IMG/VR virus record: IMGVR_UViG_3300046507_000271
Location: 1 to 54,222 of that record
Strand: one strand, 5' to 3'
DNA: 54,222 nt
Source of the DNA: a virus
Part shown: in pieces, positions 9,838-38,391 of the stretch
Position numbering within the stretch: the first letter of the stretch is position 1
Layout of the letters: each line of letters begins with the position of its first letter
Position numbers and translations under genes: made by a program
The notes under the pieces: generated by a model
Seen by the model: the letters and a program-made list of their open reading frames with translations, nothing else
What the model was told of the DNA's origin: nothing
Database searches by the model: none

Positions 9838-10803
9838 TCATCCCCCGATGAGCTGCGCAACGAGTGGGCCGATCACGGCGGATTCGCGCTGCGCTTTGAT
9901 GTTGTCCAGATAGGCGTCAGGAACCAGGCAACTAGCCATGTGCGATTGCCAGTCAGGCAATGCGCTGATGTATGCGTACTGCTTGATGATCGCCACGTCG
10001 TAGGCGACTGCTGCGTCGTCCATCGCCTGCACGTAGGCGGCAAGTTGCGGATGGTCCGAGTCGCAGACAGGCCCGGATTCTTCGAGCACTGGCGTCTTGC
10101 CGGCCGCTCTCACTGCAACGACCCAATCAGCCAGGTATTGCCGGTAATCAGCCACGGTTTCGCCGCCGAGTGCATCGTTTATCGTGTGGCTTTCGATCAC
10201 GATGCTTGCTGCAGATAACTTGATACGGTCCGCGAACGGATCTCCGTTGCCATCCATGCCGCGCAATTCGTTGTAGAGGCTGCTCGATGTGCCGCCGGTC
10301 GCGCGGTTCGTTACGGTGATGCCGGTATCGTTGAACCGCTGTTGCAGAAGCGATTGAAGGGCGGCCGGCTCATTGGGCGATACGACGGACGGGGAGCCGT
10401 ATTGATTCAGGGCGAATCCCGCCATCTGGTCGTCGCCATATACTTCGATCTTGACCGCCGGCGTTGAAGCGGGAGCTGGAGCGGCAGGAGCCGACGCAGG
10501 CGCGGGATTAGATGCGGCAGAGGGCGCCGACGCAGCCGAATCAGCCCGGCTAGGCGACGATGCCGGGTCAGGCGCGGATGCCGACGACGCAGGGATTGCG
10601 AGAGCAGGCGCGACCTGCTTAACCGTGGCTCCCTTCGCCGGCGCATCGGCACCGCCGCAGGCTGACAACATCAGCACGGCGCACACCATGAATGCGCACG
10701 CAACGGATACCGTGACAGTATCCGTGCAGATTAAATTTTTTTCGTCGCGCGGCATTGCATCGCTCGATGCACCGCGTCGTACCGCAATGCTCCAATGTTT
10801 CAT
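9838..10803 (-). CDS. Lipoprotein with an SGNH/GDSL-hydrolase-like domain (start uncertain)
   Basis: Lipobox LMLSAC|GG followed by a Pro/Ala/Ser linker. Block-like motifs are VYGDDQMAG, NRATGGTSS and ESHTINDA. The nucleophile position reads GDD rather than GDS. The first ~35 codons contain a conserved DNA element. Confidence 0.5.
   Translation of the reverse strand: MKHWSIAVRRGASSDAMPRDEKNLICTDTVTVSVACAFMVCAVLMLSACGGADAPAKGATVKQVAPALAIPASSASAPDPASSPSRADSAASAPSAASNPAPASAPAAPAPASTPAVKIEVYGDDQMAGFALNQYGSPSVVSPNEPAALQSLLQQRFNDTGITVTNRATGGTSSSLYNELRGMDGNGDPFADRIKLSAASIVIESHTINDALGGETVADYRQYLADWVVAVRAAGKTPVLEESGPVCDSDHPQLAAYVQAMDDAAVAYDVAIIKQYAYISALPDWQSHMASCLVPDAYLDNIKAQRESAVIGPLVAQLIGG
10705..10742 (-). 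promoter_or_regulatory. Operator element, flank type 1 (GGATAC-N7-GTATCC plus TGCAG/TTAAAT/T-run flank)
   Basis: Perfect palindrome at 10706-10722. The flank gtgcagattaaattttttttt is shared with the copies at 26.56, 28.69 and 34.57 kb. Confidence 0.6.
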
Positions 10804-10844
10804 GTCGTTTACTCCGTTCGTCGTTCGTTGTTATGACGATATGA

Positions 10845-10873
10845 AGGATACTAATACGGTATCGTAAACGCAA
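10845..10873 (-). promoter_or_regulatory. Sigma70-like promoter with embedded operator palindrome (type 2)
   Basis: Minus strand reads TTGCGT, a 17-bp spacer, then TATCCT. The perfect palindrome 10847-10863 occupies the spacer and -10. The leader ends AACGGAGTAAACGAC-ATG(10803). Confidence 0.6.
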
Positions 10874-10897
10874 GCAGTTTTTTGTATCGCAACCCTA

Positions 10898-10920
10898 AGC
10901 CGCCTAGTGCGGCTTTTTCT
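10898..10920 (+). terminator. Hairpin plus T-run
   Basis: Stem agccgc/gcggct followed by ttttt, between the divergent moron and lysis units. Confidence 0.45.
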
Positions 10921-10931
10921 TTGGAAGCCCG

Positions 10932-11195
10932 ATGGATCTCAACGTTTTGAACAGTTGGCTGCTCACGGCTGCCGGCGGCGCAGGAGTGGTCGTCTGGTGG
11001 CTATTTCGCACCGTTCACGCCCGCGTTGAGCGAGCAGAGACGGCGCTGGCCGAATTCAAGCTGCACTGCGCCGAGAACTACGTCACGTCGAACACACTTG
11101 AAAAGGCGCTCGACAACCTGAACAAGACGATCGGCGCGGTGTTCACGAAATTGGAGCGCATCGAGGACAAGCTTGATCTGAAGGCCGACAAATGA
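10932..11195 (+). CDS. Membrane-anchored coiled-coil protein (holin or i-spanin-like candidate)
   Basis: 87 aa. One N-terminal TMD (WLLTAAGGAGVVVWWLF) followed by a heptad-like helix. First gene of the lysis region. Confidence 0.5.
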   Translation: MDLNVLNSWLLTAAGGAGVVVWWLFRTVHARVERAETALAEFKLHCAENYVTSNTLEKALDNLNKTIGAVFTKLERIEDKLDLKADK

Positions 11196-11359
11196 CCAGC
11201 ACGCCCGCACTGCTTCAGATTGCATGTGGTGCCAGCGCTGCCAATGCCGCCAAGTACGCGGCCCCCTTGCAAGCGGCATGCGATCGCTATTCGGTCAACA
11301 CGCCGTTGCGACGGACAGGAGTGGGTTTGGGTACGTTCGCTGTGCGAAGTAGATGGTAA
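11192..11359 (+). pseudogene. Probable 5' remnant of a GH19 (chitinase-like) endolysin gene
   Basis: ATGA-coupled 55-codon ORF. MTSTPALLQIACGASAANAAKYAAPLQAACDRYSVNTPLRR matches the usual N-terminus of GH19 phage lysins. Similarity stops at ~11316, before the catalytic region, and the ORF ends at 11359. Confidence 0.35.
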
Positions 11360-11425
11360 AATCGGGGCACGCAGCGCTACGAACACTGCGCCCCCTAACC
11401 AATATCAATTTCGTGAGAATTGAAG

Positions 11426-12031
11426 ATGGCTGAACAGGATTTTAACTCCATTGAGGTTTGGGCCCAAGTACGCGGTTACGAAGGCGTATATGAGGTTTCG
11501 TCGCTTGGAGCCGTGCGTCGATGCGACAGATACCATGCGTCACCGAGGACGCTGAAGCCTGCCAGCAAGCGCGGCTATCTGCAGGTCTGTCTTTCGATGG
11601 GTGGCGTGATGCGCACGTTCACCGTTCATCGGCTTGTTTGTGAGGCGTTTATTGGCCCGCGACCAGTCGGAATGGACATCAACCACAAGAACGGCGACAA
11701 GGCTGACAACAGTGCGCCCAATCTTGAATACGTGACACACGCCGAAAACATGACGCATGCCGACGAGGTTTTGAACGTCATCGTCCCTACCAGGGCGCGA
11801 GGAGACGAGAACGGGTCGCGCGCCAGCCCGGAAAATCTAAAACGAGGCGAGCAGATAAATACTGCCGTCCTGACGGAAGAAAGAGTTCTGGCGATAAAGG
11901 AAATGCTCGGGAGTGGCGTCAAGCAGCGCGACGTTGCTGAGCATTTTTCCATTTCTCAAACGCAGGTTTGGCGAATCAGGACCGGGGTCACGTGGAGGCA
12001 CGTAACCTCCTTCAAGCCGATTTCTACCTGA
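11426..12031 (+). CDS. HNH homing endonuclease (NUMOD4-type N-terminus, HNH core, C-terminal HTH)
   Basis: WAQVRGYEGVYEVSSLGAVR (NUMOD4-like). HRLVCEAFIGPRPVGMDINHKNGDKADNSAPNLEYVTHAENM (HNH). C-terminal VKQRDVAEHFSISQTQVWRI (HTH). Low GC by eye. Confidence 0.8.
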   Translation: MAEQDFNSIEVWAQVRGYEGVYEVSSLGAVRRCDRYHASPRTLKPASKRGYLQVCLSMGGVMRTFTVHRLVCEAFIGPRPVGMDINHKNGDKADNSAPNLEYVTHAENMTHADEVLNVIVPTRARGDENGSRASPENLKRGEQINTAVLTEERVLAIKEMLGSGVKQRDVAEHFSISQTQVWRIRTGVTWRHVTSFKPIST

Positions 12032-12052
12032 CGGTCCACGAAACTCAACAGA

Positions 12053-12074
12053 ACCCGCTTCGGCGGGTTTTTTT
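12053..12074 (+). terminator. Rho-independent terminator
   Basis: Stem acccgc ttcg gcgggt followed by ttttttt. Confidence 0.7.
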
Positions 12075-12104
12075 ACGCCTACTGATTTTGCGAGGCAAGA
12101 CCTG

Positions 12105-15884: not shown

Positions 15885-16307
15885 TCACCTCCTTGCCTTG
15901 CGACCAGCATGAATCGGGCCTTCGTCGTCGGCGCCGATCGCGCGAACCCAATGGACACAACCGCGATCCGGCATCGCCTGCACATACGGCCTACCTTCGT
16001 GCATGCAAAGGATTACCGCACCGCCTGCGCGCCACTCGGCGAAGTGCTCACAGCCGATGCAATGGCGGTCGGTGGATTCAGCGTTGAACAGTCCAATTTT
16101 GCATCCCACTTCTGCGTTTCTTGCGACAAGATACCACGGAGGAATCCGCGCGCCAATAAAAATCCTGCTGCGGTATTGGTGCAAATGATGCGTACCAGGC
16201 GAAATTACTCGACATGCTTGTCTGGCGCGGGTTTGCGAGCGCCGGTACACTGGATCTGTACCAGATAGGCTATTGACCGATGGAGTGTGATGCAGAAGCG
16301 CGCCCAT
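15885..16307 (-). CDS. Hypothetical Cys/His-rich protein (start uncertain)
   Basis: 140-aa track ORF adjacent to the att region. Only the C-terminal ~90 aa looks coding. No clear RBS. Confidence 0.3.
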   Translation of the reverse strand: MGALLHHTPSVNSLSGTDPVYRRSQTRARQACRVISPGTHHLHQYRSRIFIGARIPPWYLVARNAEVGCKIGLFNAESTDRHCIGCEHFAEWRAGGAVILCMHEGRPYVQAMPDRGCVHWVRAIGADDEGPIHAGRKARR

Positions 16308-16408: not shown

Positions 16409-16594
16409 TGCGACTGTACCAAATTCGTACCAATCGCCCGCAGAGCCTTATTCTATAAGGGTGCTTGGTGCCCAGGAGAGGACACTTATCCGGTATCCGT
16501 TGACCGTCAAACCCTGATGTAACCGTGCTTTACGGATACTATCATGGTATCATTTGGTCGATTTTAGAGTGCGACTGTACCAACTGCTGTACCA
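16409..16594. repeat. attP-arm-type direct repeats flanking an operator palindrome
   Basis: TGCGACTGTACCAA occurs at 16409-16422 and 16570-16583. Each copy is followed 4-5 nt later by GTACCA (16427-16432 and 16589-16594). Lies directly upstream of int. Confidence 0.45.
16535..16551. promoter_or_regulatory. Operator palindrome GATAC-N7-GTATC next to int
   Basis: Perfect copy gatactatcatggtatc. On the + strand it supplies a TATCAT -10-like hexamer ~75 nt upstream of the int start. Confidence 0.5.
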
Positions 16595-16628
16595 GGTGCC
16601 GTCGCCAAACAAAAAGGAACCGGAAAAC

Positions 16629-17639
16629 GTGGCGACATACCAGAAGCGCGGCGAGAGCTGGCGCGCAATCGTGCGCAAGGCGGGGCATAAGCCCGTGAGC
16701 GCATCATTCAACACCAAGCCCGAGGCGGTGGCGTGGGCGACCGCTACTGAGGCAAAGCTGAACGAAGGTGGTCAGGTTGTCGACGACAACACCGTCACCC
16801 TGCCGACAGTCTCAAAGCTATTGACTCGCTATGCCCTTGAGGTTAGCCCGACGAAGCGGGGCGAGCGTTGGGAGGTTATGCGGCTTGAAATGCTTGCCCG
16901 TAATTTTCAGGTCTTCCAGAAGCCGCTTTCCCGATTCTCTCCGCAAGATGTGGCTGATTGGCGCGATGACCGATTGAGCGTCGTTTCCGCTTCGTCCGTC
17001 AATCGAGAACTGAACCTTATTTCGGCCGTGTTCACGACTGCGATCAAGGAATGGCGCATGCCTCTCAAGGAAAACCCGGTGCATCTGATCCGCCGGCCAA
17101 AGAGCGCGCGCCCGCGCAAGCGCCGCGTGGATAACACAGAAATCCAGACGATGTGCAATGCGCTCGGTTGGGACATGAAGGCAACGCCGGAGATTTCCAA
17201 GCACCTGATCGCCTGGTCATTCGTCTTCGCCGTCGAAACGGCAATGCGCCGCGGCGAGATCCTGAACATTCGGCATCGCGACGTCAACATCGCCGAGCGC
17301 TATATCCATCTGCCGCAGACGAAGAACGACGACGCGCGCAACGTTCCCCTGTCCACGCGTGCCGTTGATCTGCTTTCGCTGCTTGCGAAGGGCCGGCCAG
17401 ATGATTTTCTGGTGCCAGTGAATGCCGGATCATTCGATACTCTGTTCCGCGAGGCGAAAAAAAAGGCCGGATTGACCGACCTGCATTTCCACGACTCGCG
17501 CCGCGAAGCTGCGACGCGCATGTCCAAGTTGCTGCCGAACGTTTTAGAACTGTCGGCGGTGACAGGGCACAAGACCCTCAAGATGCTGCAAATCTACTAT
17601 GAGCCGAAGGCGACGGACATCGCCGCCAAGCTCGGTTAG
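16629..17639 (+). CDS. int: Tyrosine recombinase / phage integrase
   Basis: GTG 16629 with AAGGAA 9 nt upstream. N-terminus ATYQKRGESWRAIVRK. C-terminal catalytic region HFHDSRREAATRM...VTGHKTLKMLQIYY (R..HxxR..Y). Confidence 0.9.
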   Translation: MATYQKRGESWRAIVRKAGHKPVSASFNTKPEAVAWATATEAKLNEGGQVVDDNTVTLPTVSKLLTRYALEVSPTKRGERWEVMRLEMLARNFQVFQKPLSRFSPQDVADWRDDRLSVVSASSVNRELNLISAVFTTAIKEWRMPLKENPVHLIRRPKSARPRKRRVDNTEIQTMCNALGWDMKATPEISKHLIAWSFVFAVETAMRRGEILNIRHRDVNIAERYIHLPQTKNDDARNVPLSTRAVDLLSLLAKGRPDDFLVPVNAGSFDTLFREAKKKAGLTDLHFHDSRREAATRMSKLLPNVLELSAVTGHKTLKMLQIYYEPKATDIAAKLG

Positions 17640-21401: not shown

Positions 21402-21734
21402 TCACGCAGCTACGCTTGCATTCGGCTTGCGGGTTATTGCGGGTATGTTGCCAATGCGAATGCTTACCTGGTCGTGGTTATCCCGCGCAAGGATGGCTGC
21501 GGTTGCCGCGATCAGGTTGTGCGTCAGTTGACTTGTAGGCGTGATAGAGCGCAGGTATGCGTCTGTCGCCTGGGCGAGCGCGCGGGCAAGTTGGTCTTGT
21601 TTCACCGTGCGGGTTCCGATGTGGCGCTTTGAGGCGGCCGCCCGGCGCGCAATGACTGAGCATGCGCTTACACGAGCGGCCATGATGGCGTTCGCAGGCG
21701 TGCGTAATAATGCTGAGAATTTCGTGTAGAGCAT
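21402..21734 (-). CDS. Hypothetical protein
   Basis: 110 aa. ATG preceded by AACGGAACGGAACC. First gene after the promoter at 21785-21813. Confidence 0.45.
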   Translation of the reverse strand: MLYTKFSALLRTPANAIMAARVSACSVIARRAAASKRHIGTRTVKQDQLARALAQATDAYLRSITPTSQLTHNLIAATAAILARDNHDQVSIRIGNIPAITRKPNASVAA

Positions 21735-21784: not shown

Positions 21785-21813
21785 ACGATACCGCAACAGT
21801 ATCTGTAACGCAA
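21785..21813 (-). promoter_or_regulatory. Sigma70-like promoter with embedded operator palindrome (type 2)
   Basis: Minus strand reads TTGCGT, a 17-bp spacer, then TATCGT. Perfect palindrome at 21787-21803. Confidence 0.6.
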
Positions 21814-21816
21814 TAC

Positions 21817-22176
21817 CTAATTTCGTGTTTTCATGCATAAATCACGGAAGCGCCGCTGTTCAGCCTCGTATCCGATGAGATTTCGGTGCATCCAGACTGG
21901 CGACGCACTCCGTTTTGTCTTTCGTTCGATAGCTTCGCGCAGTGCATCGCCTTCGAGCAGGGCATAGCGCACGCGTGACGTCGTGGCGTCGCGCCAGATG
22001 ACGCCTTTCGCGACGAGTGCATGCAGCGTGTCGCGTACAGCAGCGCGCGGGCGGTCGTTGAGCAGGGCGAATATCTCGTCGAGCGTGAACTGGTAGTTAG
22101 GATCCATTGCCGCGATCATGTCCTCATGAGCGACGGTCTCGGCGGTGCGTGTACTGCTGATGGCGATGTTTTTCAA
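21817..22176 (-). CDS. Winged-helix-like DNA-binding protein
   Basis: TLDEIFALLNDRPRAAVRDTLHALVAKGVIWRD resembles a MarR/wHTH recognition unit. Confidence 0.4.
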   Translation of the reverse strand: MKNIAISSTRTAETVAHEDMIAAMDPNYQFTLDEIFALLNDRPRAAVRDTLHALVAKGVIWRDATTSRVRYALLEGDALREAIERKTKRSASPVWMHRNLIGYEAEQRRFRDLCMKTRN

Positions 22177-22403: not shown

Positions 22404-22831
22404 ACCGTCTCCATCTGTGGTTGTGTGATGCCGGTCTCCCGGCGAGTCTGTTCGAGCAATTGCGCCTCGGTTCCGTATAGGCGTTCCCATTCCTCCTGGC
22501 CGGCATGGATGGCAACGCCATATCCGCCGATCCGGTGATGCCGCGGGCAAAGCGGGATCGTGTCGAGATTGCTGCTGCGCTGGCCGCCGCCGGCGAGGTA
22601 GCGGACGTGATGCACCTCGGCCGGCGAATCGCCATAGCCACGATTTCGGCACACTACGCAGCAGAGTCCCGCGACGATGCCCATGTGTTCTCGCTCAGCC
22701 TTTGTCGCAGACTTCCGCGCGGTTTTCTTCATCGGCTTGCGCTCCAGTTCCTTCGTCGCGCTGCGAAAGCTGCTGAACGACGCGCCGGGCTTGCGCTTGA
22801 ATGCGCTTGGCTTCAATGCAGAGCGCTTCAT
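22400..22831 (-). CDS. Ref-like HNH nuclease (recombination enhancement family)
   Basis: Basic N-terminus followed by GLCCVVCRNRGYGDSPAEVHHVR...TIPLCPRHHRIG, as in P1 Ref-type nucleases. ATGA coupling on both sides. Confidence 0.55.
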   Translation of the reverse strand: MKRSALKPSAFKRKPGASFSSFRSATKELERKPMKKTARKSATKAEREHMGIVAGLCCVVCRNRGYGDSPAEVHHVRYLAGGGQRSSNLDTIPLCPRHHRIGGYGVAIHAGQEEWERLYGTEAQLLEQTRRETGITQPQMETV

Positions 22832-26553: not shown

Positions 26554-26590
26554 GATACCATGACGGTATCCTTAGCGGTCAAATTTTTTT
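26554..26590 (-). promoter_or_regulatory. Operator element, flank type 1
   Basis: Perfect palindrome at 26554-26570. Minus strand reads AAAAAAATTTGACC-GCTAAG-GATACCGTCATGGTATCTT (TTGACC -35-like and TGgTATCTT extended -10-like). Confidence 0.6.
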
Positions 26591-26821
26591 GCGTCGCAGC
26601 CCGCGCCATTCGAAGCCGCCTTCGCGCTCCGCTTCACTGCTCGGCTTGTGCTTGCAGGACTCGGCGCCGCGTGGCGTCTGCGCCGTGTACGACCAGCGCT
26701 TGCCGGTCCAGTAGCTGAACAGGCGAAAGATCGTCTTGCCGTTCGGCTTGCGGCGCACTTCATAGACGCCAATGTGTATCGGCTTGGTGCTCTTGTCGAA
26801 CCAGACTGTGAACTCTTGCAT
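26579..26821 (-). CDS. Hypothetical protein
   Basis: ATG 26821 with an AGGAG RBS. 80 aa (MQEFTVWFDKSTKPIHIGVYEV...). Confidence 0.45.
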   Translation of the reverse strand: MQEFTVWFDKSTKPIHIGVYEVRRKPNGKTIFRLFSYWTGKRWSYTAQTPRGAESCKHKPSSEAEREGGFEWRGLRRKKI

Positions 26822-26879
26822 GGGAGGTCTCCTGGCTGACGCCGGCGCGGGCCGGCGACGCGGTTTTATTGCGCGTACC

Positions 26880-27536
26880 TCAAAAGGGGATGTCGTCCGC
26901 CATCGTGTCGAATCCGCCGAAGTTTTCATCGGCGATGTGGCCGCCGTTGCTCGATGCCGTCGACTTCTTCAGCGGCCGATCCTTCAGGGCGGCGACTAGC
27001 TGCGGCAACTTGGTCGGCGTCGTCTTGCGGTCAAGGATTTCGGATGCCGTCAGTTCGGTGTCGGCCTGAAACACGGCATTCAGGCGAACGCTCCAGCCGG
27101 TCTCGCCAGTCGGCCGCTTGTTCTGATCGCGCTTCTCGTATTCCTCCATTGCGATCAGGATGCCGACGCGCTTGTTCAGCAGTTCCGGGAATTGGCTCAG
27201 CGTCTTGCTGACGTTGGCCGCCGCGTCCTTGTCCCAGACCATCGATGCAACCTGCGCCGGCTTGATGTCCTTAACACCGAGGCACGTCATCAGTGCCATC
27301 AGCGTCCCGAAGTCGCCGAGTTTTTCTCCATCCGACTTGATCGTGTAGATCGAGAAGTTCGCTTTCTGGCCGTCGTCGGTCTCGAACGTGAATGCGATGC
27401 CGCGTGTGCCGCTTGCCGCGGTGATGTCCTCGGCGCGCGTGAACTTGCCGACATACTTGCCTTTTTCGTCGATGAAGCTCGTCCGTTGCTCGGCCTTGCG
27501 TGCTGCTTGCGCGGACTCGTTGTTCAGTGCGTACAT
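26880..27536 (-). CDS. SSB-like single-strand DNA-binding protein (DUF669 type) with an acidic DDIPF tail
   Basis: 218 aa. The C-terminus FGGFDTMADDIPF is the SSB protein-interaction tail. Sits next to the Sak4-like ATPase. Confidence 0.6.
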   Translation of the reverse strand: MYALNNESAQAARKAEQRTSFIDEKGKYVGKFTRAEDITAASGTRGIAFTFETDDGQKANFSIYTIKSDGEKLGDFGTLMALMTCLGVKDIKPAQVASMVWDKDAAANVSKTLSQFPELLNKRVGILIAMEEYEKRDQNKRPTGETGWSVRLNAVFQADTELTASEILDRKTTPTKLPQLVAALKDRPLKKSTASSNGGHIADENFGGFDTMADDIPF

Positions 27537-27560: not shown

Positions 27561-28211
27561 TTAGGCCGTAGCCGTGAGGGAGTAATACTCGGTGATAGCC
27601 GCGTCGACAGCCGCCAGGTCATTCGGGATCGTGTCATCCTCGAATAGACCCATCGGCGACTTGCATGTATTGCGGCCGTTGTTTTGCGTGATGAACCGAT
27701 AGTCACGGTCCATCACATCGGTTTGCAGGACGATCGTCACCATGCCTTCAAGGCAAATTTTGTCGTCCAGCATTTTTCCGATGCTTTTCATCTTCGTAGT
27801 CCCGTCGTCGCTTTTCTCTGTGTGCGACAGGACGTAGACGCGCACATCGTCGGGCAGGGCAGTCGCCGCGTTCAGAATGTCCCACGCGTGCCGGCCAATC
27901 TCGGTGAACTTCTCGTACCCCTTCTCGTCGCTCCGTCGCATGAATTCCGACGACATCACATACTGAAAGTCGTCGAGCACGATCACCTTGCGCTGCGTTC
28001 GCGTCATGTACTTGATGATGCTGTCCGATTGATCGCAGACGATCACGTTTCCACGCGGCGTGTCCTTGGACAGATAGCCCCATCCCGCCGATCGGAAAGG
28101 CAATGGCTTCTTAAGAGCCTGTATCAAAAGGGTCGACGAAGGATCGAGATTGCGCATTGACGTGCTCTTTCCGGTGCCCGATGCTCCGAGAATGAAGGTT
28201 ACGATTGCCAT
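27561..28211 (-). CDS. Sak4-like RecA-fold ATPase (single-strand annealing / recombination)
   Basis: Walker A GASGTGKST at the N-terminus. Walker B VIVLDDF. 216 aa. Sits in the module with SSB and Gp157. Confidence 0.65.
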   Translation of the reverse strand: MAIVTFILGASGTGKSTSMRNLDPSSTLLIQALKKPLPFRSAGWGYLSKDTPRGNVIVCDQSDSIIKYMTRTQRKVIVLDDFQYVMSSEFMRRSDEKGYEKFTEIGRHAWDILNAATALPDDVRVYVLSHTEKSDDGTTKMKSIGKMLDDKICLEGMVTIVLQTDVMDRDYRFITQNNGRNTCKSPMGLFEDDTIPNDLAAVDAAITEYYSLTATA

Positions 28212-28380: not shown

Positions 28381-28791
28381 TCAAGCGCGGGCTTCATTAG
28401 CTATCTCGTCAATCTCAGTGCGCAGCACATTGGCGCGCTTCATGAGTAATGCGAGCCAGCCATCGGCCGCCGCGTCTGGGTACAGCGTTTCGTATCGCTG
28501 CCATTCGTCCGTTAGCTCGCGCAGTAGCGCGTAGACGTCGGGAAACTTCGTGGCTATGCGGATCTGTCGATCAAGCGTTACAAGCGTGATCACGTCCGCA
28601 ATGTATTGGTCGCCAGCGTTTCGCAGATCGGCAAGTGCCACGTCCTTCGGGACTTGCGTCACTGCGTTAACGCTAGCTTCTACGGTATCGGTGCAGTTCA
28701 AATTTTTTTCGCCGACGCCGGACTGGCGCGGGTGAAACGCCGACGTGGCCCGTAATAATAACGCCTTTTGTAGCTTGGTTACCGTGTTCAT
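28381..28791 (-). CDS. Hypothetical protein (start uncertain)
   Basis: 136-aa ORF. ATG 28791 preceded by AACGGAAG. Codons ~28-41 are encoded by the type-1 DNA element. Confidence 0.4.
   Translation of the reverse strand: MNTVTKLQKALLLRATSAFHPRQSGVGEKNLNCTDTVEASVNAVTQVPKDVALADLRNAGDQYIADVITLVTLDRQIRIATKFPDVYALLRELTDEWQRYETLYPDAAADGWLALLMKRANVLRTEIDEIANEARA
28673..28709 (-). promoter_or_regulatory. Operator element, flank type 1 (half-palindrome)
   Basis: acggtatcggtgcagttcaaattttttt. GTATC at 28685-28689. The partner half is degenerate (ctagc). Confidence 0.45.
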
Positions 28792-28843
28792 GGTCTAATC
28801 TTCCGTTCGTGGTTTTGGTTTGTGTTTTGTGCTGCTGAGATGA

Positions 28844-28872
28844 AGGATACTAAAACGGTATCCGTCTTGCAA
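28844..28872 (-). promoter_or_regulatory. Sigma70-like promoter with embedded operator palindrome (type 2)
   Basis: Minus strand reads TTGCAA, a 17-bp spacer, then TATCCT. Perfect palindrome at 28846-28862. Confidence 0.6.
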
Positions 28873-28904
28873 GTGTTTTCGCTAAGATTTTCGTGCGCTC
28901 GCGC

Positions 28905-31328: not shown

Positions 31329-31357
31329 ACGATACCGTAACAGTATCCGTAACGCAA
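31329..31357 (-). promoter_or_regulatory. Sigma70-like promoter with embedded operator palindrome (type 2)
   Basis: Minus strand reads TTGCGT, a 17-bp spacer, then TATCGT. Perfect palindrome at 31331-31347. Confidence 0.6.
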
Positions 31358-31366: not shown

Positions 31367-31873
31367 TTATGCGTGTCGCGAAAATTCACGGTGGAGGGAA
31401 TTTCGCGCTTCTCGAATTGCGCGTTCGGCGTCGTCTACGGTCTTGAAGTAGCCTATATGGATAATCTTCCCGTCCACAGATATTCGCGCCCTCAGTCCTT
31501 GCTTCGCTGCCGACACGCCTTTGATGCCGCTAGTGTTGTCGCTTCTTTTTTTCCGGTTGTAGGCGTTTTCGTTTGGGCTAGCCATTCGCAAGTTCGCGAT
31601 TCTGTTGTCAAGCGGGTTTCCGTTGATATGATCGATCATCCGGTCGGGCATTTCTCCATAGACTAGTAGCCATGCTAGTCTGTGGGCCAAATAACGGTTC
31701 GCTCCCACTCTGATGCACCAATACCCAGAATTGTTTATGCCACCGGCTGTCGTTCCACGGTGATTCTTGTGTGTGCTCTTTTTTCTCGTAAACACGCCCG
31801 TCTCTGGATCGTAGTCTAGGATTTCTGCAACGTATTCTCGGGTCAGCGTCGGGTTATATGTCACACTGTTCAT
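31367..31873 (-). CDS. HNH homing endonuclease with a C-terminal AP2-type DNA-binding domain
   Basis: GYWCIRVGANRYLAHRLAWLLVYGEMPDRMIDHINGNPLDNRIANLRMASPNEN (HNH). SGIKGVSAAKQGLRARISVDGKIIHIGYFKTVDDAERA (AP2-like). Low GC by eye. Confidence 0.8.
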   Translation of the reverse strand: MNSVTYNPTLTREYVAEILDYDPETGVFTRKKSTHKNHRGTTAGGINNSGYWCIRVGANRYLAHRLAWLLVYGEMPDRMIDHINGNPLDNRIANLRMASPNENAYNRKKRSDNTSGIKGVSAAKQGLRARISVDGKIIHIGYFKTVDDAERAIREARNSLHREFSRHA

Positions 31874-33428: not shown

Positions 33429-33760
33429 GCGGTCTCCAGAAGGCGCTCGGCCTTTTCGCGATAGATCGAAACAGCGATAGAACTGAACGCCCAGAATGCG
33501 GCGAAGTCGAACTGGCCGTACCAGGCGAACAGGATGACGACCGTGACGTCGCCAACGCCCGTCACCCATCTGGTGATTCGCGGAAGCGGTTCCATATGCG
33601 TTCCCGGCTCGGCAAACAGCGTCACTACGCCGCATGCAAGCGATGCATACACCCAGAAGCGGATGACGTTGCGCGCTCCCTCTATGCCGAAGCCGTACCA
33701 CGCGATAGCGAGGCAAGCGAATAACACGACATAGGCGATGTGTTTGATCGAGCGCTTCAT
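33425..33760 (-). CDS. Small integral membrane protein (3-4 TMDs)
   Basis: ATGA-coupled ATG 33760. Hydrophobic runs IAYVVLFACLAIAWYGF, FWVYASLACGVVTLF and VTVVILFAWYG. Confidence 0.5.
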   Translation of the reverse strand: MKRSIKHIAYVVLFACLAIAWYGFGIEGARNVIRFWVYASLACGVVTLFAEPGTHMEPLPRITRWVTGVGDVTVVILFAWYGQFDFAAFWAFSSIAVSIYREKAERLLETA

Positions 33761-34482
33761 GCTTGATCTCCGCTTGCGGACTGAGCGGCGGTCAGGGCGC
33801 ACTGCACTGCTGCCACGAATTCAACTTTGGTGGGCGGAACGCCGACGCACTTCAAGGACAGATACGATTCATCGCTCGTCTCGATGTTTTGCCGCATCAG
33901 CACGTCGAACAGATCGATCAGGCGCGCATCATCGGTGTTCGCTGTCTGTGCTGGCGGGACGGTGTAGACGATGCGTTTGAATGCGCCGTCCGTTGCGTCA
34001 TATAGGCTTTGCGGTACGTCGCTCCAGCCTCCTTCAATCGGATCAAGCACCTGATAGATCGCCCCGCGCTCGTCCTGCTCGACCGATGGCGCGGCATCTT
34101 CCAGTTGCTTGTCAATGCAGGTTAGGCACACGTAACCGCCCATCCAGTCGATACGCAGGGGAGTGTGCTTATGTTCTCCGCAGCGCGCGCAGTTTGTCGC
34201 CTGAGTGCTCGCGTAGGAATACTGCTCGACGGCTGGCGCAGGCTTACTTGCTTGCTTGCTGGCGTCAGCCAGATCGGGCTTCACATCGCAATCCGCGATG
34301 CATCCCTTTATTTGAGCAATAGCAAGCCGGATTTGCTCCGCTGCTTGCGCCGGATCGGACCCGTTATCGAGCCATCGAGCCGCGCATTCCAATGCGAATA
34401 CCGCGCGCTCGAAGGCGGATTTTTCAGTCGTACTGTATGTTTGTACAGTACTTTGTCCTAAAGATGCCTCGTTAGTGTTCAT
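33757..34482 (-). CDS. Zinc-ribbon early protein, paralog of 19054..20238
   Basis: 241 aa. CARCGEHKH...CLTC. Shares a 33-bp identical DNA block (34060-34092 = 19789-19821) and a near-identical 3' end with its paralog. Confidence 0.5.
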   Translation of the reverse strand: MNTNEASLGQSTVQTYSTTEKSAFERAVFALECAARWLDNGSDPAQAAEQIRLAIAQIKGCIADCDVKPDLADASKQASKPAPAVEQYSYASTQATNCARCGEHKHTPLRIDWMGGYVCLTCIDKQLEDAAPSVEQDERGAIYQVLDPIEGGWSDVPQSLYDATDGAFKRIVYTVPPAQTANTDDARLIDLFDVLMRQNIETSDESYLSLKCVGVPPTKVEFVAAVQCALTAAQSASGDQA

Positions 34483-34564
34483 TCTCAGTTCCTTTTTTTA
34501 TTTCTTCACATGAAAGATTTCTAGGCGATTTCCGCCCGGAAAACCGATACCGTTGCTATAGACG

Positions 34565-34601
34565 GATACTACCACGGTATCGGTGCAGTTCGCAAAAAAA
34601 G
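34565..34601 (-). promoter_or_regulatory. Operator element, flank type 1
   Basis: Perfect palindrome at 34565-34581, followed by ggtgcagttcgc and an A-run. An extra half-site lies at 34546-34550. Confidence 0.55.
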
Positions 34602-34611
34602 ATGCAGGCGG

Positions 34612-35259
34612 TCATGCCTGAGCTAGCTGCGGAATCGACGCGAGCATCGCGTCCAGCGATCCAGCCCGCGTGAAGGTCAGTTGTGGATTGTCCGAGCCGC
34701 CGAGCATGACGCGCTTGGCCTGTTCAGCGTGTCCGATCAGCACTGGCGGATGGCTCTTGTGGCCGGCGCGATTGTTCTGCGACTCAGAAATTCCGGTCAG
34801 CACGCGCTGGTATTCCGGCGTCTCGTTACGCATCTTGTATCCGCGATAGCGGTTCTCGAACTCTTTCGCGACGAAGGGCCATTCCTTCTCGTCTTTACCG
34901 CCAACCTGCACCCATCCGCCCATGTCCATGATGACGCGGTGAATGATCGGATCGTCAAAGACAACGCTGTTATATGTTCCGCAGGATCTCACTGCGCGGT
35001 CTACTTTTGCCCATGCCACAAGGGCCGAATCCTGTGTCGAGCCTTGCAGCATCTTCACCACGTCGGCGGGCTTCGGTGCAAACTGGCCGCTATCCGGGTT
35101 CACGCAATGCCGGTTGAGCGCGTCAGCCACGGCGCGGTAGTCGTATGGCTTCATGGCCTCCCACCAGACATTCCCGCCGAACTCGGATAGGTCTTTACCA
35201 TAGAACGCCTGGACGTCTGCAATAAGTGCGATAAAAGCGGCGTGTTCGTTCGTGTTCAT
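34612..35259 (-). CDS. Replication-module protein (helicase-loader position)
   Basis: ATGA-coupled ATG 35259. 215 aa. Directly downstream of the initiator gene. No recognisable ATPase motif. Confidence 0.45.
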   Translation of the reverse strand: MNTNEHAAFIALIADVQAFYGKDLSEFGGNVWWEAMKPYDYRAVADALNRHCVNPDSGQFAPKPADVVKMLQGSTQDSALVAWAKVDRAVRSCGTYNSVVFDDPIIHRVIMDMGGWVQVGGKDEKEWPFVAKEFENRYRGYKMRNETPEYQRVLTGISESQNNRAGHKSHPPVLIGHAEQAKRVMLGGSDNPQLTFTRAGSLDAMLASIPQLAQA

Positions 35260-36147: not shown

Positions 36148-36468
36148 TCATTGGTCGTCCTGTTCGGTTCGTTCGGCTGCGACGGCCGGCAGATCGGGGA
36201 TTGCTTCGATGACGGCCGGGCCGCGCGCTTTGCCGACGAGCTTCGGCATTTCGTGACGCAGGCCGATCATGTCGATGACGGTCAGGTGCGGCTTGTTCGG
36301 TCCAACTAACTGCGCGCTGACTCGTGCGAATTCGAGCGCGCGTTTCTTGCCGACCACCTTGTGACCGTTGCGGATGTTGCTCCAGTAGATCGGGCCAATG
36401 CCGATGTGGTCGAGCAACTGGTTCACTACCTTCGCCCCGTATGCATCGTGAAATTCTTGTGCGTTCAA
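36148..36468 (-). CDS. Cro/CII-type HTH regulator of the leftward early operon
   Basis: TTG 36468 lies 7 nt after AAGGAG. IGPIYWSNIRNGHKVVGKKRALEFARV is HTH-like. Divergent from the CI-like gene. Confidence 0.5.
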   Translation of the reverse strand: MNAQEFHDAYGAKVVNQLLDHIGIGPIYWSNIRNGHKVVGKKRALEFARVSAQLVGPNKPHLTVIDMIGLRHEMPKLVGKARGPAVIEAIPDLPAVAAERTEQDDQ

Positions 36469-36525
36469 TTCATGGCTCCTTTGCCGGGTTATAATTGCAA
36501 TACAGTATAGCATCGGATACCGTGA

Positions 36526-36542
36526 CGGTTAGCGTTTAGGAT
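36526..36542. promoter_or_regulatory. Degenerate operator copy in the immunity intergenic region
   Basis: ggataccgtgacggttagc. The left half plus spacer match the 10705 copy and the right half is degenerate. A TATACT -10-like hexamer lies 8 nt downstream on the minus strand. Confidence 0.45.
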
Positions 36543-36566: not shown

Positions 36567-36686
36567 ATGAACTTATTGAAAAATGATGCCTTTACGGTTG
36601 CATTGGCAGCCGGAAACCTTCAAGATTTCACGAATGGATGCCGCGATTTAATCGGGACAGGCATCCGACCAAGTGGCGTGCCTTGA
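36567..36686 (+). CDS. Possible 39-aa leader ORF upstream of the CI-like gene
   Basis: ATG 36567 lies 8 nt after GGAG. MNLLKNDAFTVALAAGNLQDFTNGCRDLIGTGIRPSGVP. Confidence 0.3.
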   Translation: MNLLKNDAFTVALAAGNLQDFTNGCRDLIGTGIRPSGVP

Positions 36687-36718: not shown

Positions 36719-37156
36719 ATGGCTATCGAAACGATCGATGCATTGCGCGCACGAAACTTCCACCTGCTTTTCGAGCAGTTCAAGGAAGGGGTGAGAAGGG
36801 ATGACCCGACCGCGCCCGATCGGGGAATGCTGAGGCGCTTCGCTGCGCACCTGGAAATGAACCCCGTCTACCTGTCGAACCTGAACACAGGCTCGAAGAC
36901 GATCGGACTGCGGACGGCGCGCGAGATTGAGTCCCGGCTGAAGCTGCCGGAAGGCTGGATGGACACGGACCACAGCAACAACGAAGCCGAGATGAGCGAT
37001 GACGACCTGGCGTTCCGGGATTCGGTCATGGCGATGTACCGGCAGGCGCCCGAGGCGTCGCGCGCGGCCGTTCTCCGGGTGCTTCAGGCTCTTGTCCTGG
37101 GTAAACCCATAGAGGACGTACTTTCTACCGACAAATCCCGCAAGAAAGCGAATTAG
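36719..37156 (+). CDS. CI-type repressor (HTH only, no S24 peptidase domain)
   Basis: ATG 36719 with an AAGGA RBS. FAAHLEMNPVYLSNLNTGSKTIGLRTAREIESRLKLPEGWMD is a phage-CI-type HTH. The whole protein is 145 aa. Confidence 0.6.
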   Translation: MAIETIDALRARNFHLLFEQFKEGVRRDDPTAPDRGMLRRFAAHLEMNPVYLSNLNTGSKTIGLRTAREIESRLKLPEGWMDTDHSNNEAEMSDDDLAFRDSVMAMYRQAPEASRAAVLRVLQALVLGKPIEDVLSTDKSRKKAN

Positions 37157-37311
37157 ACTCGCGCAAACATTTGCGGATTGTTGCAACCGCTGAAAATGTA
37201 AAATTTTGTATCGAAACTTGTTGCGTGCGCGGGACTGGTGCGGATACTCTTACGTCACCGCTTATCCGTTGCGGGAAAAGATACCGGTTTCGCAATCCTG
37301 AGAGGCACGAC

Positions 37312-37518
37312 ATGACGAGTTTTGGCACTGCTGGCAGTACAGAAAAAAACAATACTGCCGCTGGTGTACTGGCGGAAGGCTTACGCAGCGACGAGGGCGA
37401 ATACCAGATCGCCGCCGCTGCCGCAGCCATCCCAGCGCATATGCGCCGGGAGGTTCTGGCTCACTTGCACGAGCTTATTTGCGCCGATGCAACGCACACC
37501 GTGGCGGTATGCAAATAG
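37312..37518 (+). CDS. Hypothetical 68-aa protein downstream of the CI-like gene
   Basis: Internal ATG 37312. Upstream TTGCGT-16 bp-GATACT promoter-like pair at ~37231-37258. Confidence 0.3.
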   Translation: MTSFGTAGSTEKNNTAAGVLAEGLRSDEGEYQIAAAAAAIPAHMRREVLAHLHELICADATHTVAVCK

Positions 37519-37629
37519 TGCTTGCGATACTGTGAAGGTTTTGATACGATTTATCTAGCATGTCGTTTTTGCGTCTAGCGAGGCGGTGTGTTCATGTTGG
37601 TTCCGTTCGTAGATCCCCAGATCTACTTT

Positions 37630-37659
37630 CCGCTCTCCTGATGGATTGAGCGGCTTTTT
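37630..37659 (+). terminator. Rho-independent terminator
   Basis: Stem ccgctc/gagcgg followed by cttttt. Confidence 0.6.
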
Positions 37660-37668
37660 ACACTGTAG

Positions 37669-37707
37669 GCCCCTGTCTGATGCGAGTCGGCAGGGGCTTT
37701 GTGCTTT
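37669..37707 (+). terminator. Second hairpin with T-rich tail
   Basis: Stem gcccctg/caggggc followed by tttgtgcttt. Confidence 0.5.
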
Positions 37708-37718
37708 ATGGCTTCAAT

Positions 37719-37797
37719 TCCGCGAAACCCGAGCAAGGTGCATGGGCCTGACTGTTAATCAGTGGCTAGCTGAGTTCGATCCTCAGGCGCGGAGCCA
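37719..37797 (+). tRNA. tRNA-like gene with anticodon loop CU-GUU-AA (Asn) and several non-canonical positions
   Basis: Hand fold: acceptor TCCGCG(A)/(G)CGCGGA. D arm CCCG/TGGG with an 11-nt loop containing A14, G18G19 and A21. Anticodon stem CTGA/TCAG with loop CTGTTAA. T arm CTGAG-TTCGATC-CTCAG. Discriminator G followed by CCA. Anomalies: A at position 8, an A.G 7-66 pair, no position 26 and a 6-nt variable loop. Confidence 0.5.
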
Positions 37798-37799
37798 AC

Positions 37800-37824
37800 A
37801 CAAAAAGCCAGCGCAAGGCTGGCT
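37800..37824 (-). terminator. Rho-independent terminator of the short leftward unit
   Basis: Minus strand reads agccagc cttgc gctggct followed by ttttt. Confidence 0.55.
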
Positions 37825-38013
37825 CTCTGCGATCTATAACCGCAGCACAGGATTCCTCTGCAAGCGCGCCGTCATGGCGACCGCCTACGCGCAGATGCGT
37901 TCTCTTTCTCGCCGATCGGTTGGTGGACTACCGACCGGCTGACGTAATAAGCGGCGATGCAGGTTGGTCGAGTTCATGGCTTCCGTTCCTTATGGTTGTG
38001 ACTTCGCGGTGAT

Positions 38014-38142
38014 TCAGTCGCTGTCGGCGTCGCTATCGTCTGCGTCGTCGTCCAGCTCAGGCTCGCCATAGCTCTCGTCGCAATAGCGAGCGGCAACACG
38101 CGCAAGGTCGGATTCGCCTGCGGTGTCGAAAGCTGTTTTCAT
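38014..38142 (-). CDS. Very acidic 42-aa protein
   Basis: ATG 38142 is preceded by AGGAG. MKTAFDTAGESDLARVAARYCDESYGEPELDDDADDSDADSD. Absent from the ORF track because it is shorter than 60 aa. Confidence 0.4.
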   Translation of the reverse strand: MKTAFDTAGESDLARVAARYCDESYGEPELDDDADDSDADSD

Positions 38143-38276
38143 GGCGCACTCCTAATGATCCTGAGATACGTTGAAGAAGGCCCTAGGTGTTTCTGGTGCG
38201 CGCGCCCGATGAACGGGCGTCGTTGCTGCGATCCTGACGACAAACTCGATTGCCGTAGATCGGCACATGACCGAAT

Positions 38277-38293
38277 GATGCCATAACGGTATC
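38277..38293. promoter_or_regulatory. Operator copy with one mismatch (GATGC-N7-GTATC)
   Basis: gatgccataacggtatc followed by tttgagtgcgagaagttttt, a type-2-like flank. Upstream of the leftward acidic-protein unit. Confidence 0.45.
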
Positions 38294-38374
38294 TTTGAGT
38301 GCGAGAAGTTTTTGTTACAGGTTGTATTCGTGGATACTGTTGCGCGTTTTGTGTTCGCTGGCGCACATTGCACG

Positions 38375-38391
38375 GATACCGTGAAAGCATC
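38375..38391. promoter_or_regulatory. Operator copy with one mismatch (GATAC-N7-GCATC)
   Basis: gataccgtgaaagcatc preceded by TTGCAC. Upstream of the rightward unit starting at 38415. Confidence 0.45.

Follow-up and report, generated by a model that had tools for sequence, protein, structure and literature searches.

What reads a 17-bp palindrome that recurs at separate promoters across the early genes of a temperate phage, and what would such a protein do there? The window analysed here is the whole of the IMG/VR virus record IMGVR_UViG_3300046507_000271 (54,222 nt). Perfect copies of GATAC-N7-GTATC start at 10706, 10847, 16535, 21787, 26554, 28846, 31331 and 34565, exactly where the first-pass annotation had located them, and its claim that eight copies exceed chance holds: shuffled controls contained 0.02 perfect copies on average and never more than one. 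We propose, with a probability of about 0.7, that the palindrome is the operator of the phage's immunity repressor, most likely a dimer of a 145-aa CI/Rep-like helix-turn-helix (HTH) protein.

A dispersed palindrome in the early region

The full 17-bp element reads GATACYRT-N-AYRGTATC. A site-scoring matrix trained on related phages alone (threshold at least 8 bits) found 13 sites in the window against 0.9 expected. All 13 fall in 10.7–38.4 kb, and none lies in the structural genes. The two one-mismatch copies previously reported at 38277 and 38375 are both present, and the half copy GTATC at 28685–28689 is real, forming part of a partial site. Two further one-mismatch copies, at 16481 and 16130, had been overlooked, and a copy placed at 36526–36542 was 10 nt off, the true partial site being at 36516–36532. 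A one-mismatch match at 34825 scored below 4 bits and is probably due to chance. The sites outside the cro/CI region are as follows.

10706–10722, minus strand: class-2 perfect operator with flank A7-TTTAATC-TGCACG, in the 5′ part of ORF 9838–10803, 141 bp downstream of the 10847 site
10845–10873, minus strand: class-1 promoter–operator; −35 TTGCGT (10868–10873), perfect operator (10847–10863), −10 TATCCT (10845–10850); predicted targets, lipoprotein/GDSL-like ORF 9838–10803 and ORF 9102–9860
16130–16146, no strand assigned: one-mismatch site (16.0 bits) in an 800-bp non-coding stretch upstream of int
16481–16497, plus strand: one-mismatch site scoring 14.2 bits, with the perfect int-proximal site 54 bp downstream of it
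16525–16553, plus strand: class-1-type promoter–operator, GTGCTT-17-TATCAT, with perfect operator 16535–16551, immediately upstream of tyrosine integrase ORF 16554–17639
21785–21813, minus strand: class-1 promoter–operator, TTGCGT-17-TATCGT, operator 21787–21803; predicted targets, 21402–21734 and the genes downstream
26554–26570, minus strand: class-2 perfect operator, 49 nt upstream of a Gp157-family gene (true start 26504), with an additional half-site, GATACCG, 14 nt downstream; the upstream ORF 26579–26929 terminates within the A-run/TGA of the flank
28673–28689, minus strand: class-2 partial operator with one perfect half, ACGGTATC (28682–28689), in ORF 28381–28791, 173 bp downstream of the 28846 site
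28844–28872, minus strand: class-1 promoter–operator, TTGCAA-17-TATCCT, operator 28846–28862; predicted targets, 28381–28791, AAA_24 ATPase gene 27561–28211 and 26880–27536
31329–31357, minus strand: class-1 promoter–operator, TTGCGT-17-TATCGT, operator 31331–31347
34565–34581, minus strand: class-2 perfect operator, after a terminator-like hairpin (34605–34620) and followed by TATAGC (which relatives have as TATACT), then a GGTATCGG half-site and the 241-aa ORF 33757–34482
38277–38293, minus strand: one-mismatch operator (19.6 bits), upstream of a 42-aa acidic ORF (38014–38142)
38375–38391, plus strand: one-mismatch operator scoring 13.8 bits, with 24 nt separating it from the first rightward gene downstream (38415), the head of the plus-strand block running into the structural genes

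The earlier statement that every copy lies between genes or at an ORF edge applies to most of them and fails for 10706 and 28673, which sit about 100 nt within ORFs starting at 10803 and 28791. Relatives keep the same imperfect form of the 28673 site. The 38277/38375 pair is spaced 98 bp apart (99 bp in one locus) in 12 of 13 relatives checked.

Probable operators embedded in promoters

In six copies, which we call class 1, the palindrome occupies the promoter spacer (TTGCGT-N17-TATCNT) and gives the −10 element: the spacer is exactly 17 nt and the −10 consists of the operator's final 4 nt plus 2 nt. All six point to the downstream gene, with an ATG and ribosome-binding site 43–60 nt away. The four TTGC(G/A)(T/A)-17-TATC(C/G)T promoters described at first reading matched exactly, and the int site repeats their layout on the plus strand. 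The promoters fit the σ70 consensus poorly (7/12), and a generic σ70 scan found no other minus-strand promoters across 20–39 kb. The early region appears to comprise at least eight transcription units, each with its own weak σ70-type promoter and a predicted start site. Since operator and promoter overlap at class-1 sites, a bound repressor would exclude RNA polymerase.

The proposal that the palindrome supplies the −10 applies to class 1 and not beyond it. At class-2 sites, TTGACC or TTGAAC lies 19 bp from TATC; this departure from the 17-bp spacer counts against the operator model, and the class-2 sites are candidate promoters. The second conserved flank that had been noted (an A/T run, TTGAAC/TTGACC, then TGCAC) is present at 10706, 26554, 28673 and 34565, whereas its TGCAC element varies in relatives. 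Another part of the first reading assigned operators to an envelope moron operon. The lipoprotein operon does carry them, and for that reason is probably a lytic-phase unit rather than one expressed in the lysogen.

Conservation and covariation with the CI recognition helix

The promoter layout (TTGCNN-N4, the 17-mer, then NT) recurs on the early-gene strand in related viral contigs (60 + 71) and is common to about 130 related metagenomic contigs and Paraburkholderia prophages. In these relatives the GATAC/GTATC arms are invariant, the central 7 nt and the adjoining genes vary, and site positions are kept while adjacent genes are swapped. The conservation check proposed earlier thus came out in favour of the motif, which is retained with its promoter layout across the phage family.

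Each palindrome type is exclusive to one type of CI recognition helix. Helix MNPVYLSNLNTGSK goes with GATAC (3–4 sites per locus in 8 loci, with none of the other types), MDQIYVSQIKNG... with AATAC-N7-GTATT, ISDKFVSHINTGRK with CTACCG (CTACC-N5-GGTAG, 4–5 perfect copies) and FSDAYLSHINTGYR with GCTATC (CTATC-N5-GATAG). These locus counts overstate independence because some relatives are counted twice: L121–L123 are the same prophages as L132–L134, and a single contig contributes several of the IMG/VR loci. Half of the loci were fetched with CI as the anchor, so universal CI presence is no independent test. Site type follows CI type rather than anchor-gene divergence, relatives at 84%, 80% and 79% identity carrying AATAC, GATAC and GATGC, respectively. 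The covariation is confounded by common descent; the Cro-like gene, 21817–22176, 22828–23223 and several other early genes likewise track the GATAC group.

The cro/CI switch region

The candidate binders and the sites beside them are as follows.

36148–36468, minus strand: Cro-like HTH protein of 106 aa (TTG start at 36468), divergent from CI
36516–36532, minus strand: imperfect operator (9.7 bits; GATACCGTGACGGTTAG, three right-arm mismatches) in the Cro-like gene promoter
36585–36629, no strand assigned: two degenerate 17-mers, GATGCCTTTACGGTTGC and GAAACCTTCAAGATTTC, in the interval from the cro start to the CI start
36719–37156, plus strand: CI-like repressor of 145 aa (HTH ...RGMLRRFAAHLEMNPVYLSNLNTGSK...), the proposed palindrome binder

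The CI-like protein matches PHROG regulator/repressor families and has no peptidase (S24) domain. Its model has an HTH (helices 37–45 and 49–57) followed by C-terminal helices. The best match in both profile and fold is the small HTH repressor Rep of Salmonella phage SPC32H, which likewise lacks a cleavage domain (PDB 5d50; profile E 1e-5, fold probability 1.0), although the similarity is weak, at 19–25% identity over the three 5d50 chains and a TM score of 0.45.

A candidate −10 (TATACT) lies 6 nt downstream of the 36516 site. In the 8 type-A relatives with a measurable distance, an equivalent site precedes the CI start by 203–204 bp; five shorter loci have one at the corresponding place too. 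Prophages of Paraburkholderia piptadeniae and P. caffeinitolerans, which are distant relatives, carry three copies of their dispersed palindrome 85–160 bp upstream of the CI gene and a further copy just downstream of it. By position, the two degenerate 17-mers of the window may parallel operators 2 and 3 of that cluster, though the evidence is weak. The window's own cro/CI intergenic region holds one moderate site and two very degenerate ones. Strong sites near its own gene would be expected of a classical autoregulated repressor, and this counts against the CI reading.

The earlier claim that one dimeric protein controls many promoters through scattered palindromes gains from the conserved layout, the helix covariation and the CI-adjacent cluster. 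Of the binders then listed, comparison leaves the CI-like protein; the winged-helix label was confirmed for 22828–23223 (ArsR-like) and is tentative for 21817 and 32465.

Alternative readings

The Cro-like protein may be a second binder of the palindrome. That it, or another early lytic regulator, is the main binder, with CI acting at the switch only, is unlikely. Such a protein would turn down early promoters later in infection; the Cro-like helix GPIYWSNIRNGHK is similar to that of CI (NPVYLSNLNTGSK), so that both could read one site, the Cro-like protein covaries with CI in most groups, and the strongest sites in the window are away from the CI gene. We favour CI over Cro because the ISVINFRQIMSGHK CI group has dispersed palindromes and no detectable Cro-like gene, and because loci with one CI helix (ISPISASQHKHG) and two Cro variants have a single operator type. 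At least eight autonomous lytic promoters would, moreover, require a lysogenic repressor on every one.

The palindrome might instead bind a phage activator, with weak promoters of both classes firing only when bound, as in MerR-type regulation. The promoters' poor σ70 match agrees with this, as does a generic scan that detected none of them, and class 2 fits it best, 19 bp being the typical spacer length of MerR-type promoters. We regard an activator as quite improbable, given that every type has a class-1 spacer of exactly 17 bp, that a dimer at about −28 to −12 would ordinarily block RNA polymerase, that none of the early genes scanned gave a MerR-family protein, and that clustered copies beside divergent CI/cro genes in relatives are a classic repressor layout. 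Very improbable indeed is a host transcription factor or a DNA-level function (methylation/restriction, a homing-endonuclease target or recombination). The phage does encode a DUF4942/methyltransferase-like protein and two HNH endonucleases, and 16 of 97 homology-block ends lie near sites against 6 expected; yet relatives retaining every site lack a homologue of the methyltransferase-like gene (24037–25620) and of the HNH gene at 31367–31873, and the sites keep a constant offset from the −35 and −10 hexamers. The half-site also differs among co-occurring related phages and tracks a phage protein, a pattern that a host factor would not give.

Comparison with known regulons

P1 C1 operators, of about 17 bp, are scattered over the genome at 22 sites and are asymmetric, ATTGCTCTAATAAATTT (PMC8546580). 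As in P1, one repressor here would serve many separate transcription units through dispersed operators of about 17 bp; unlike in P1, the operators are symmetric, implying a symmetric dimer. C1 lacks a self-cleavage domain, as does the CI-like protein, and is countered by protein antagonists. No search made matched the CI-like protein to C1, and this phage encodes an integrase; P1, by contrast, persists as a plasmid.

Motif and repressor also co-vary in Cluster A mycobacteriophages (L5, Bxb1), giving graded immunity types (PMC6550527), and these phages share the many genome-wide repressor sites. Their stoperators are asymmetric, monomer-bound, transcription-oriented and mostly off promoters (PMC6550527, PMC9283540). 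The sites here are, by contrast, palindromic and mostly part of promoters, in a phage of a Gram-negative host. The 10706 and 28673 sites, in transcribed ORFs downstream of a promoter, could nevertheless act as roadblocks, as stoperators do.

In the Streptomyces phage phiC31, repressor c binds highly conserved 17-bp inverted repeats in early-gene intergenic regions and regulates its own gene, and the early promoters are of a non-σ70 type. A 17-bp inverted repeat in many intergenic early-region copies is common to both phages; repressor family and host differ. Lambda offers the divergent CI-like/Cro-like HTH pair and 17-bp two-fold symmetric operators, and its OR1–3 resemble the three-operator cluster that separates the two genes in the Paraburkholderia relatives. 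Unlike lambda, this phage would rely on at least eight autonomous promoters, each with an operator, rather than an OL/OR pair with antitermination; its CI-like protein has no S24 peptidase domain, and its switch-region sites are the weakest in the window, not the strongest. We conclude that the regulon probably works like that of P1 C1 or the actinophage repressors, but with symmetric, promoter-embedded sites.

A repressor without a self-cleavage domain would be induced through an antirepressor. The title of PDB entry 5d50 describes a Rep–Ant complex, in which Rep is inactivated by its antirepressor; unlike SPC32H, the window yielded no Ant homologue. An SOS-box-like palindrome at 34430–34451 points to an antirepressor route of induction.

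In the lysogen, a single repressor would silence the units for replication, recombination, nuclease, integrase and lipoprotein as well as the beginning of the rightward block, with the weaker, conserved imperfect copies in the cro/CI region and downstream of CI providing graded control of the switch. A single CI-type repressor thus most likely keeps the whole lytic programme silent in this temperate phage of a Burkholderia-like host, a strategy already known, here in a phage family that is undescribed.

Dispersed palindromes, probable operators, outside the structural genes

The window, with a G+C content of 59%, looks like a complete temperate phage genome, laid out as follows.

1-8.5 kb and 38.4-54 kb, plus strand: structural genes
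10.9-14.2 kb: lysis cassette
16554-17639: tyrosine integrase
17.8-36.5 kb, minus strand: long early-gene block

The early block encodes NinB, a RecA-dependent nuclease, a DUF4942/methyltransferase-like protein, Gp157, an AAA_24 ATPase and an O/DnaD-like replication protein. Divergent genes at 36.1-37.2 kb encode two helix-turn-helix (HTH) proteins, a Cro-like protein of 106 aa on the minus strand (true start TTG 36468) and a CI-like protein of 145 aa on the plus strand (true start ATG 36719). Megablast of 20 kb found no close relatives among GenBank phages, and for the coat protein the only matches are to distant phages of the P22-coat type (52-56%). Homologues of the CI-like protein turn up in Paraburkholderia prophages (P. 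piptadeniae, P. caffeinitolerans and P. phosphatilytica) as well as in metagenome-assembled genomes of Burkholderiales, which makes a host within the Burkholderiales probable. A literature search found nothing specific to this phage group or motif.

Perfect copies of the palindrome GATAC-N7-GTATC occur exactly eight times in the window (mean of dinucleotide-preserving shuffles, 0.02), and the pattern search returned precisely the eight copies listed in the first-pass annotation, which begin at 10706, 10847, 16535, 21787, 26554, 28846, 31331 and 34565. Allowing one mismatch raised the count to 13 (0.79 expected); this set recovered the previously listed copies at 38277 and 38375 and added three, at 16130, 16481 and 34825. 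The half copy reported at 28685-28689 is real and forms part of a larger partial site, 28673-28689, and a copy that had been placed at 36526-36542 lies instead here:

36516-36532: imperfect operator, sequence GATACCGTGACGGTTAG

The arms reach inward, so that the element is a 17-bp palindrome of two 8-bp half-sites, GATACYRT-N-AYRGTATC (operator consensus GATACCGTAACGGTATC). A position weight matrix trained on the sites of related contigs alone, with the window left out, matched 13 positions in the window at 8 bits or more, compared with 0.9 in first-order Markov resamples. All 13 fall within 10.7-38.4 kb, and the matrix scan found no operator in the structural-gene blocks (38.5-54.2 kb and 1-10.6 kb). 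Motif copies far above chance over several transcription units are characteristic of a dispersed-operator regulon.

Probable operators built into predicted promoters

At four minus-strand sites (10847, 21787, 28846 and 31331), here called class 1, the operator lies inside a predicted promoter. The -35 hexamer is TTGCGT or TTGCAA, the 17-nt spacer holds the left 13 nt of the operator, and the -10 hexamer, TATCCT or TATCGT, consists of the operator's last 4 nt and 2 nt more, a TTGC..-17-TATC.. layout exactly as first described. The int-proximal site at 16535 has the same layout on the plus strand (GTGCTT-17-TATCAT), and 38277 is a weaker version (CGCACT-17-CATCAT). An ATG with a GGA-type ribosome-binding site follows each class-1 site by 43-60 nt; the conserved AACGGAR 'leader' of the first-pass annotation is present there as sequence and corresponds to the ribosome-binding region before the ATG. 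The predicted class-1 promoters agree with the sigma-70 consensus at only 7 of 12 positions, and a generic promoter scan of 20-39 kb detected no other minus-strand promoter. As in dispersed-operator regulons, the sites are placed at (here predicted) promoters and lie outside the late structural genes; they keep a fixed register with the -35 and -10 elements. A protein occupying about -28 to -12 would keep RNA polymerase off the promoter. Close to the 10847 site, a strong intrinsic-terminator-like hairpin on the plus strand (10897-10923; AAGCCGC-ctagt-GCGGCTT and a T-run) separates the operator from the first lysis-cassette gene at 10932; the 2 kb before it contain minus-strand genes only.

The class-2 sites (10706, 26554, 28673 and 34565) are flanked by an A/T run and, at 6 nt from the operator, by a hexamer resembling TTGACC/TTGAAC. 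This hexamer is 19 nt from TATC, too distant for a standard promoter. In relatives, the 34565-type site has a good TATACT 4 nt past the operator, followed by an additional half-site, and a downstream half-site is likewise conserved at the 26554-type. Two class-2 sites, 10706 and 28673, follow class-1 promoters at distances of 141 and 173 bp, respectively, and fall about 100 nt inside ORFs starting at 10803 and 28791, in both of which the element is translated as EKNL(I/N)CTDTV. A hydrophobic or lipobox stretch comes directly after this peptide in both ORFs. Among relatives, some 25 codons ahead of the in-ORF element vary freely, and the element and the sequence following it are conserved. The element may act as a leader peptide or a roadblock, or the gene may truly start elsewhere.

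Conservation of the sites in related loci

A first scan of genome contigs with the 218-aa anchor protein found no relatives. The early protein encoded at 26880-27536, used as query, gave 60 IMG/VR loci, and an alignment of CI-like proteins gave 71 further loci and 6 from bacterial genomes. Conservation in close relatives, on which the first-pass annotation had made its reading depend, supports that reading: loci whose CI is 96-99% identical to that of the window share its site map, with perfect GATAC-N7-GTATC copies at equivalent promoters. Across these loci the arms are invariant and the central 7 nt variable, and the genes beside the sites show 30-100% identity or are fully replaced. The imperfect sites around CI are conserved as well. 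One lies 203-204 bp upstream of the CI start in the 8 relatives with a measurable distance, and at the matching place in 5 shorter loci; the two imperfect sites downstream of CI, spaced 98 bp (99 bp in one locus), were present in 12 of 13 relatives checked. No related locus that covers the positions of the DUF4942/methyltransferase-like gene (24037-25620) and an HNH gene (31367-31873) has a counterpart of either, and both look, from this comparison, like recent insertions. The HNH gene is immediately upstream of the 31331 operator; another HNH endonuclease is encoded at 11420-12031.

Covariation of palindrome and CI recognition helix

Relatives with other CI alleles keep the promoter-operator layout unchanged and have a different palindrome; the first row of the table is the type of the window itself.

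Table. Recognition helix of the CI homologue and palindrome of the same loci
CI helix: palindrome
MNPVYLSNLNTGSK: GATAC
MDQIYVSQIKNG...: AATAC-N7-GTATT
ISVINFRQIMSGHK: GATGC-type
ISPISASQHKHG: GATAC...GTATT
ISDKFVSHINTGRK: CTACCG-N3-CGGTAG
FSDAYLSHINTGYR: GCTATC-N5-GATAGC

When CI helix type was cross-tabulated against perfect palindrome count, the types showed zero overlap, the sole exceptions being single GATAC hits that, in one group, lie within the CI coding sequence. Judged by sequence comparison, site type tracks CI type rather than overall relatedness: loci at 84%, 80% and 79% anchor identity are of the AATAC, GATAC and GATGC type, respectively. Motif and repressor thus covary as in dispersed-operator regulons, with shared descent only partly excluded as the cause.

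In the P. piptadeniae and P. caffeinitolerans prophages, the CI gene is preceded, at 85-160 bp, by three copies of the dispersed palindrome, next to a divergent gene; one more lies just past CI, and others are at TTGCGC-N4-operator promoters several kilobases away. Two degenerate 17-mers in the window (36585 and 36613) parallel operators 2 and 3 of this cluster. The two loci (L132, P. piptadeniae STM7183; L133, P. caffeinitolerans LMG 28688) each contain 13 CTACC-N5-GGTAG-type sites in 20 kb, of which 4 and 5, respectively, are perfect; the three-site cluster upstream of the CI homologue (9840-10470) is among them. The P. phosphatilytica 7QSK02 prophage (L134) has 14 CTATC-N5-GATAG sites, 7 of them perfect. 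These three prophages offer cultivable systems for the regulon.

The CI-like protein as candidate repressor

We consider it fairly probable (roughly 70%) that the palindromes form a scattered-operator regulon of the immunity repressor, for which the CI-like protein is the candidate; its binding and its effect on transcription we infer from sequence. The protein has no Pfam or NCBIfam match, including to the S24 peptidase C-terminal domain, and its 145 aa end in an all-helical C-terminus in the model. It does match PHROG regulator and repressor families, and in the PDB its family profile hits the repressor 5d50 (E = 1e-5) as well as the N-terminal domain of a phage 'CI', 7nkv. The AlphaFold2 model (pLDDT 78.6) places an HTH at residues 37-57 (helices 37-45 and 49-57), followed by C-terminal helices, and contains no peptidase domain. 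Its best fold match is again 5d50, a Rep-Ant complex of a Salmonella temperate phage (Foldseek E = 4.6e-3, probability 1.0, TM 0.45, 25% identity over 87 columns); other fold matches are Xre/lambda-type domains, in keeping with an N-terminal HTH.

The recognition helix of the Cro-like protein is similar to that of the CI-like protein, and Cro may therefore bind the same sites. CI is favoured as the common factor: in one CI group palindromes are present although no Cro-like gene could be detected, and a single operator type occurs alongside two different Cro variants. Among the winged-helix candidates of the first-pass annotation, the product of 22828-23223 is a genuine, ArsR-like winged-helix protein, and those at 21817 and 32465 gave no such match. 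The ArsR-like protein went undetected in one related locus (L056) and the Paraburkholderia prophages despite their dispersed palindromes, which, with about 10 kb per side covered, counts weakly against it. The proposal of one dimeric protein acting at many promoters is thus supported by conservation and helix covariation, with the candidates narrowed to the CI-like protein.

The palindromes as targets of a methyltransferase/restriction system or a homing endonuclease we rejected, since the candidate enzymes are missing in relatives that retain the sites. Scans for tRNAs and Rfam families over the window gave no match, so an RNA-element reading is without support. An intrinsic terminator we also rejected: the stem is A/T-rich with its T-run 13 nt away, and in three of the four class-2 copies an A-run is on the transcribed strand. 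For sigma-54 or ECF-type promoters, the spacings in the class-2 flank are, by inspection, wrong.

A proposed model for repression and induction

Under control by an immunity repressor, the early region would be divided into autonomous units, each promoter bearing its operator; a terminator-like hairpin lies at one unit boundary (34605-34620). Bound repressor would occlude the promoters and keep the entire lytic programme silent, including int, the lipoprotein unit and the first rightward gene. The conserved imperfect sites at the switch would allow weaker, concentration-dependent control.

Because the repressor lacks a cleavage domain, induction would probably proceed through an antirepressor. 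A 22-bp perfect palindrome resembling an SOS box, GTACTGTATGTTTGTACAGTAC, occupies 34430-34451. This places it downstream of the 34565 operator and some 35 nt into a 241-aa ORF (33757-34482), at its 5' end. LexA of beta-proteobacteria recognises CTGT-N8-ACAG. At least 13 relatives conserve the box as DNA, with variable codons on either side, which suggests LexA control of this unit. The unit possibly encodes an antirepressor; the 241-aa ORF itself has no detectable similarity to known antirepressors and no family or PDB support for that role. Another ORF (38014-38142, minus strand; 42 aa) is extremely acidic, ends ...ELDDDADDSDADSD and has a good ribosome-binding site. It lies downstream of the 38277 operator, with a leader of about 120 nt containing a hairpin in between, is 93% identical in the one relative checked (L071), and could be a DNA mimic or repressor antagonist.

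Two further features lie downstream of CI. A good promoter-like sequence on the plus strand (37522-37550; TTGCGA-17-TACGAT) overlaps a GATAC half-site, and about 120 nt past it is a strong hairpin with a T-run (37668-37708). The interval holds no convincing ORF and Rfam was empty there; past the CI operon, 37522-37708 may thus encode a small RNA. The segment 37737-37797 resembles a tRNA 3' half (T-arm CTGAG-TTCGATC-CTCAG, acceptor strand and CCA), and ARAGORN found no tRNA there. The surrounding 37714-37800 is absent from the alignment with a related locus (L069) and may be inserted DNA or the remnant of an attachment site; the integrase gene is distant.

Comparison with known systems

The closest likeness of these sites is to the 17-bp conserved inverted repeats of phiC31. 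Whereas lambda has two operator clusters (OL and OR) and antitermination, here at least 10 operator-bearing positions lie in separate units; and whereas lambda CI has a C-terminal S24 domain for RecA-stimulated self-cleavage, the CI-like protein lacks one, the two sharing an N-terminal HTH. By sequence and fold, the CI-like protein is nearest, weakly, to the Rep/Ant type (5d50). P1 C1, with 22 dispersed, asymmetric 17-bp operators (PMC8546580), uses functionally the same strategy, but here the operators are symmetric and part of the promoter. Cluster A mycobacteriophages, including L5, share the covariation of operators/stoperators with the repressor (PMC6550527; PMC9283540). Their stoperators are asymmetric, 13-14 bp long and oriented with transcription (PMC6550527), whereas the sites here are 17-bp perfect palindromes. 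Stoperators are mostly found away from promoters, where they block elongation; here most sites are embedded in promoters, and 10706 and 28673 sit about 100 nt inside ORFs downstream of a class-1 promoter.

The promoter-operator cassettes might also be portable junctions for gene-module exchange in this phage family, an unlikely reading for which the evidence is at most suggestive. Of 97 homology-block ends, 16 lie no more than 60 bp from an operator, against 6.0 expected under a uniform rather than intergenic-only null. Cassettes 28669-28902 and 34254-34604 persist in relatives as 74-94% identical islands amid non-homologous genes, and it is at the class-2 element of 28673 that the window and its relatives come to differ in the downstream gene. 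If so, a module recombined in at a cassette would arrive pre-wired to the resident repressor, and a new immunity type would need concerted change of all cassettes (more than 10) and the CI helix.

The system is a clean, conserved example of scattered operators, with natural specificity variants, in an undescribed Burkholderiales phage family. With it, a strategy known chiefly from P1 and actinophages extends to operators that are symmetric and promoter-embedded, in a Gram-negative siphovirus-like phage. At least five natural helix/half-site pairs allow the joint change of repressor specificity and operator set to be studied, and could serve as orthogonal repressor-promoter pairs in Burkholderia-type hosts. 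For uncultivated Burkholderiales temperate phages, the analysis provides a regulon map comprising the operator, its likely repressor and about 10 target promoters.
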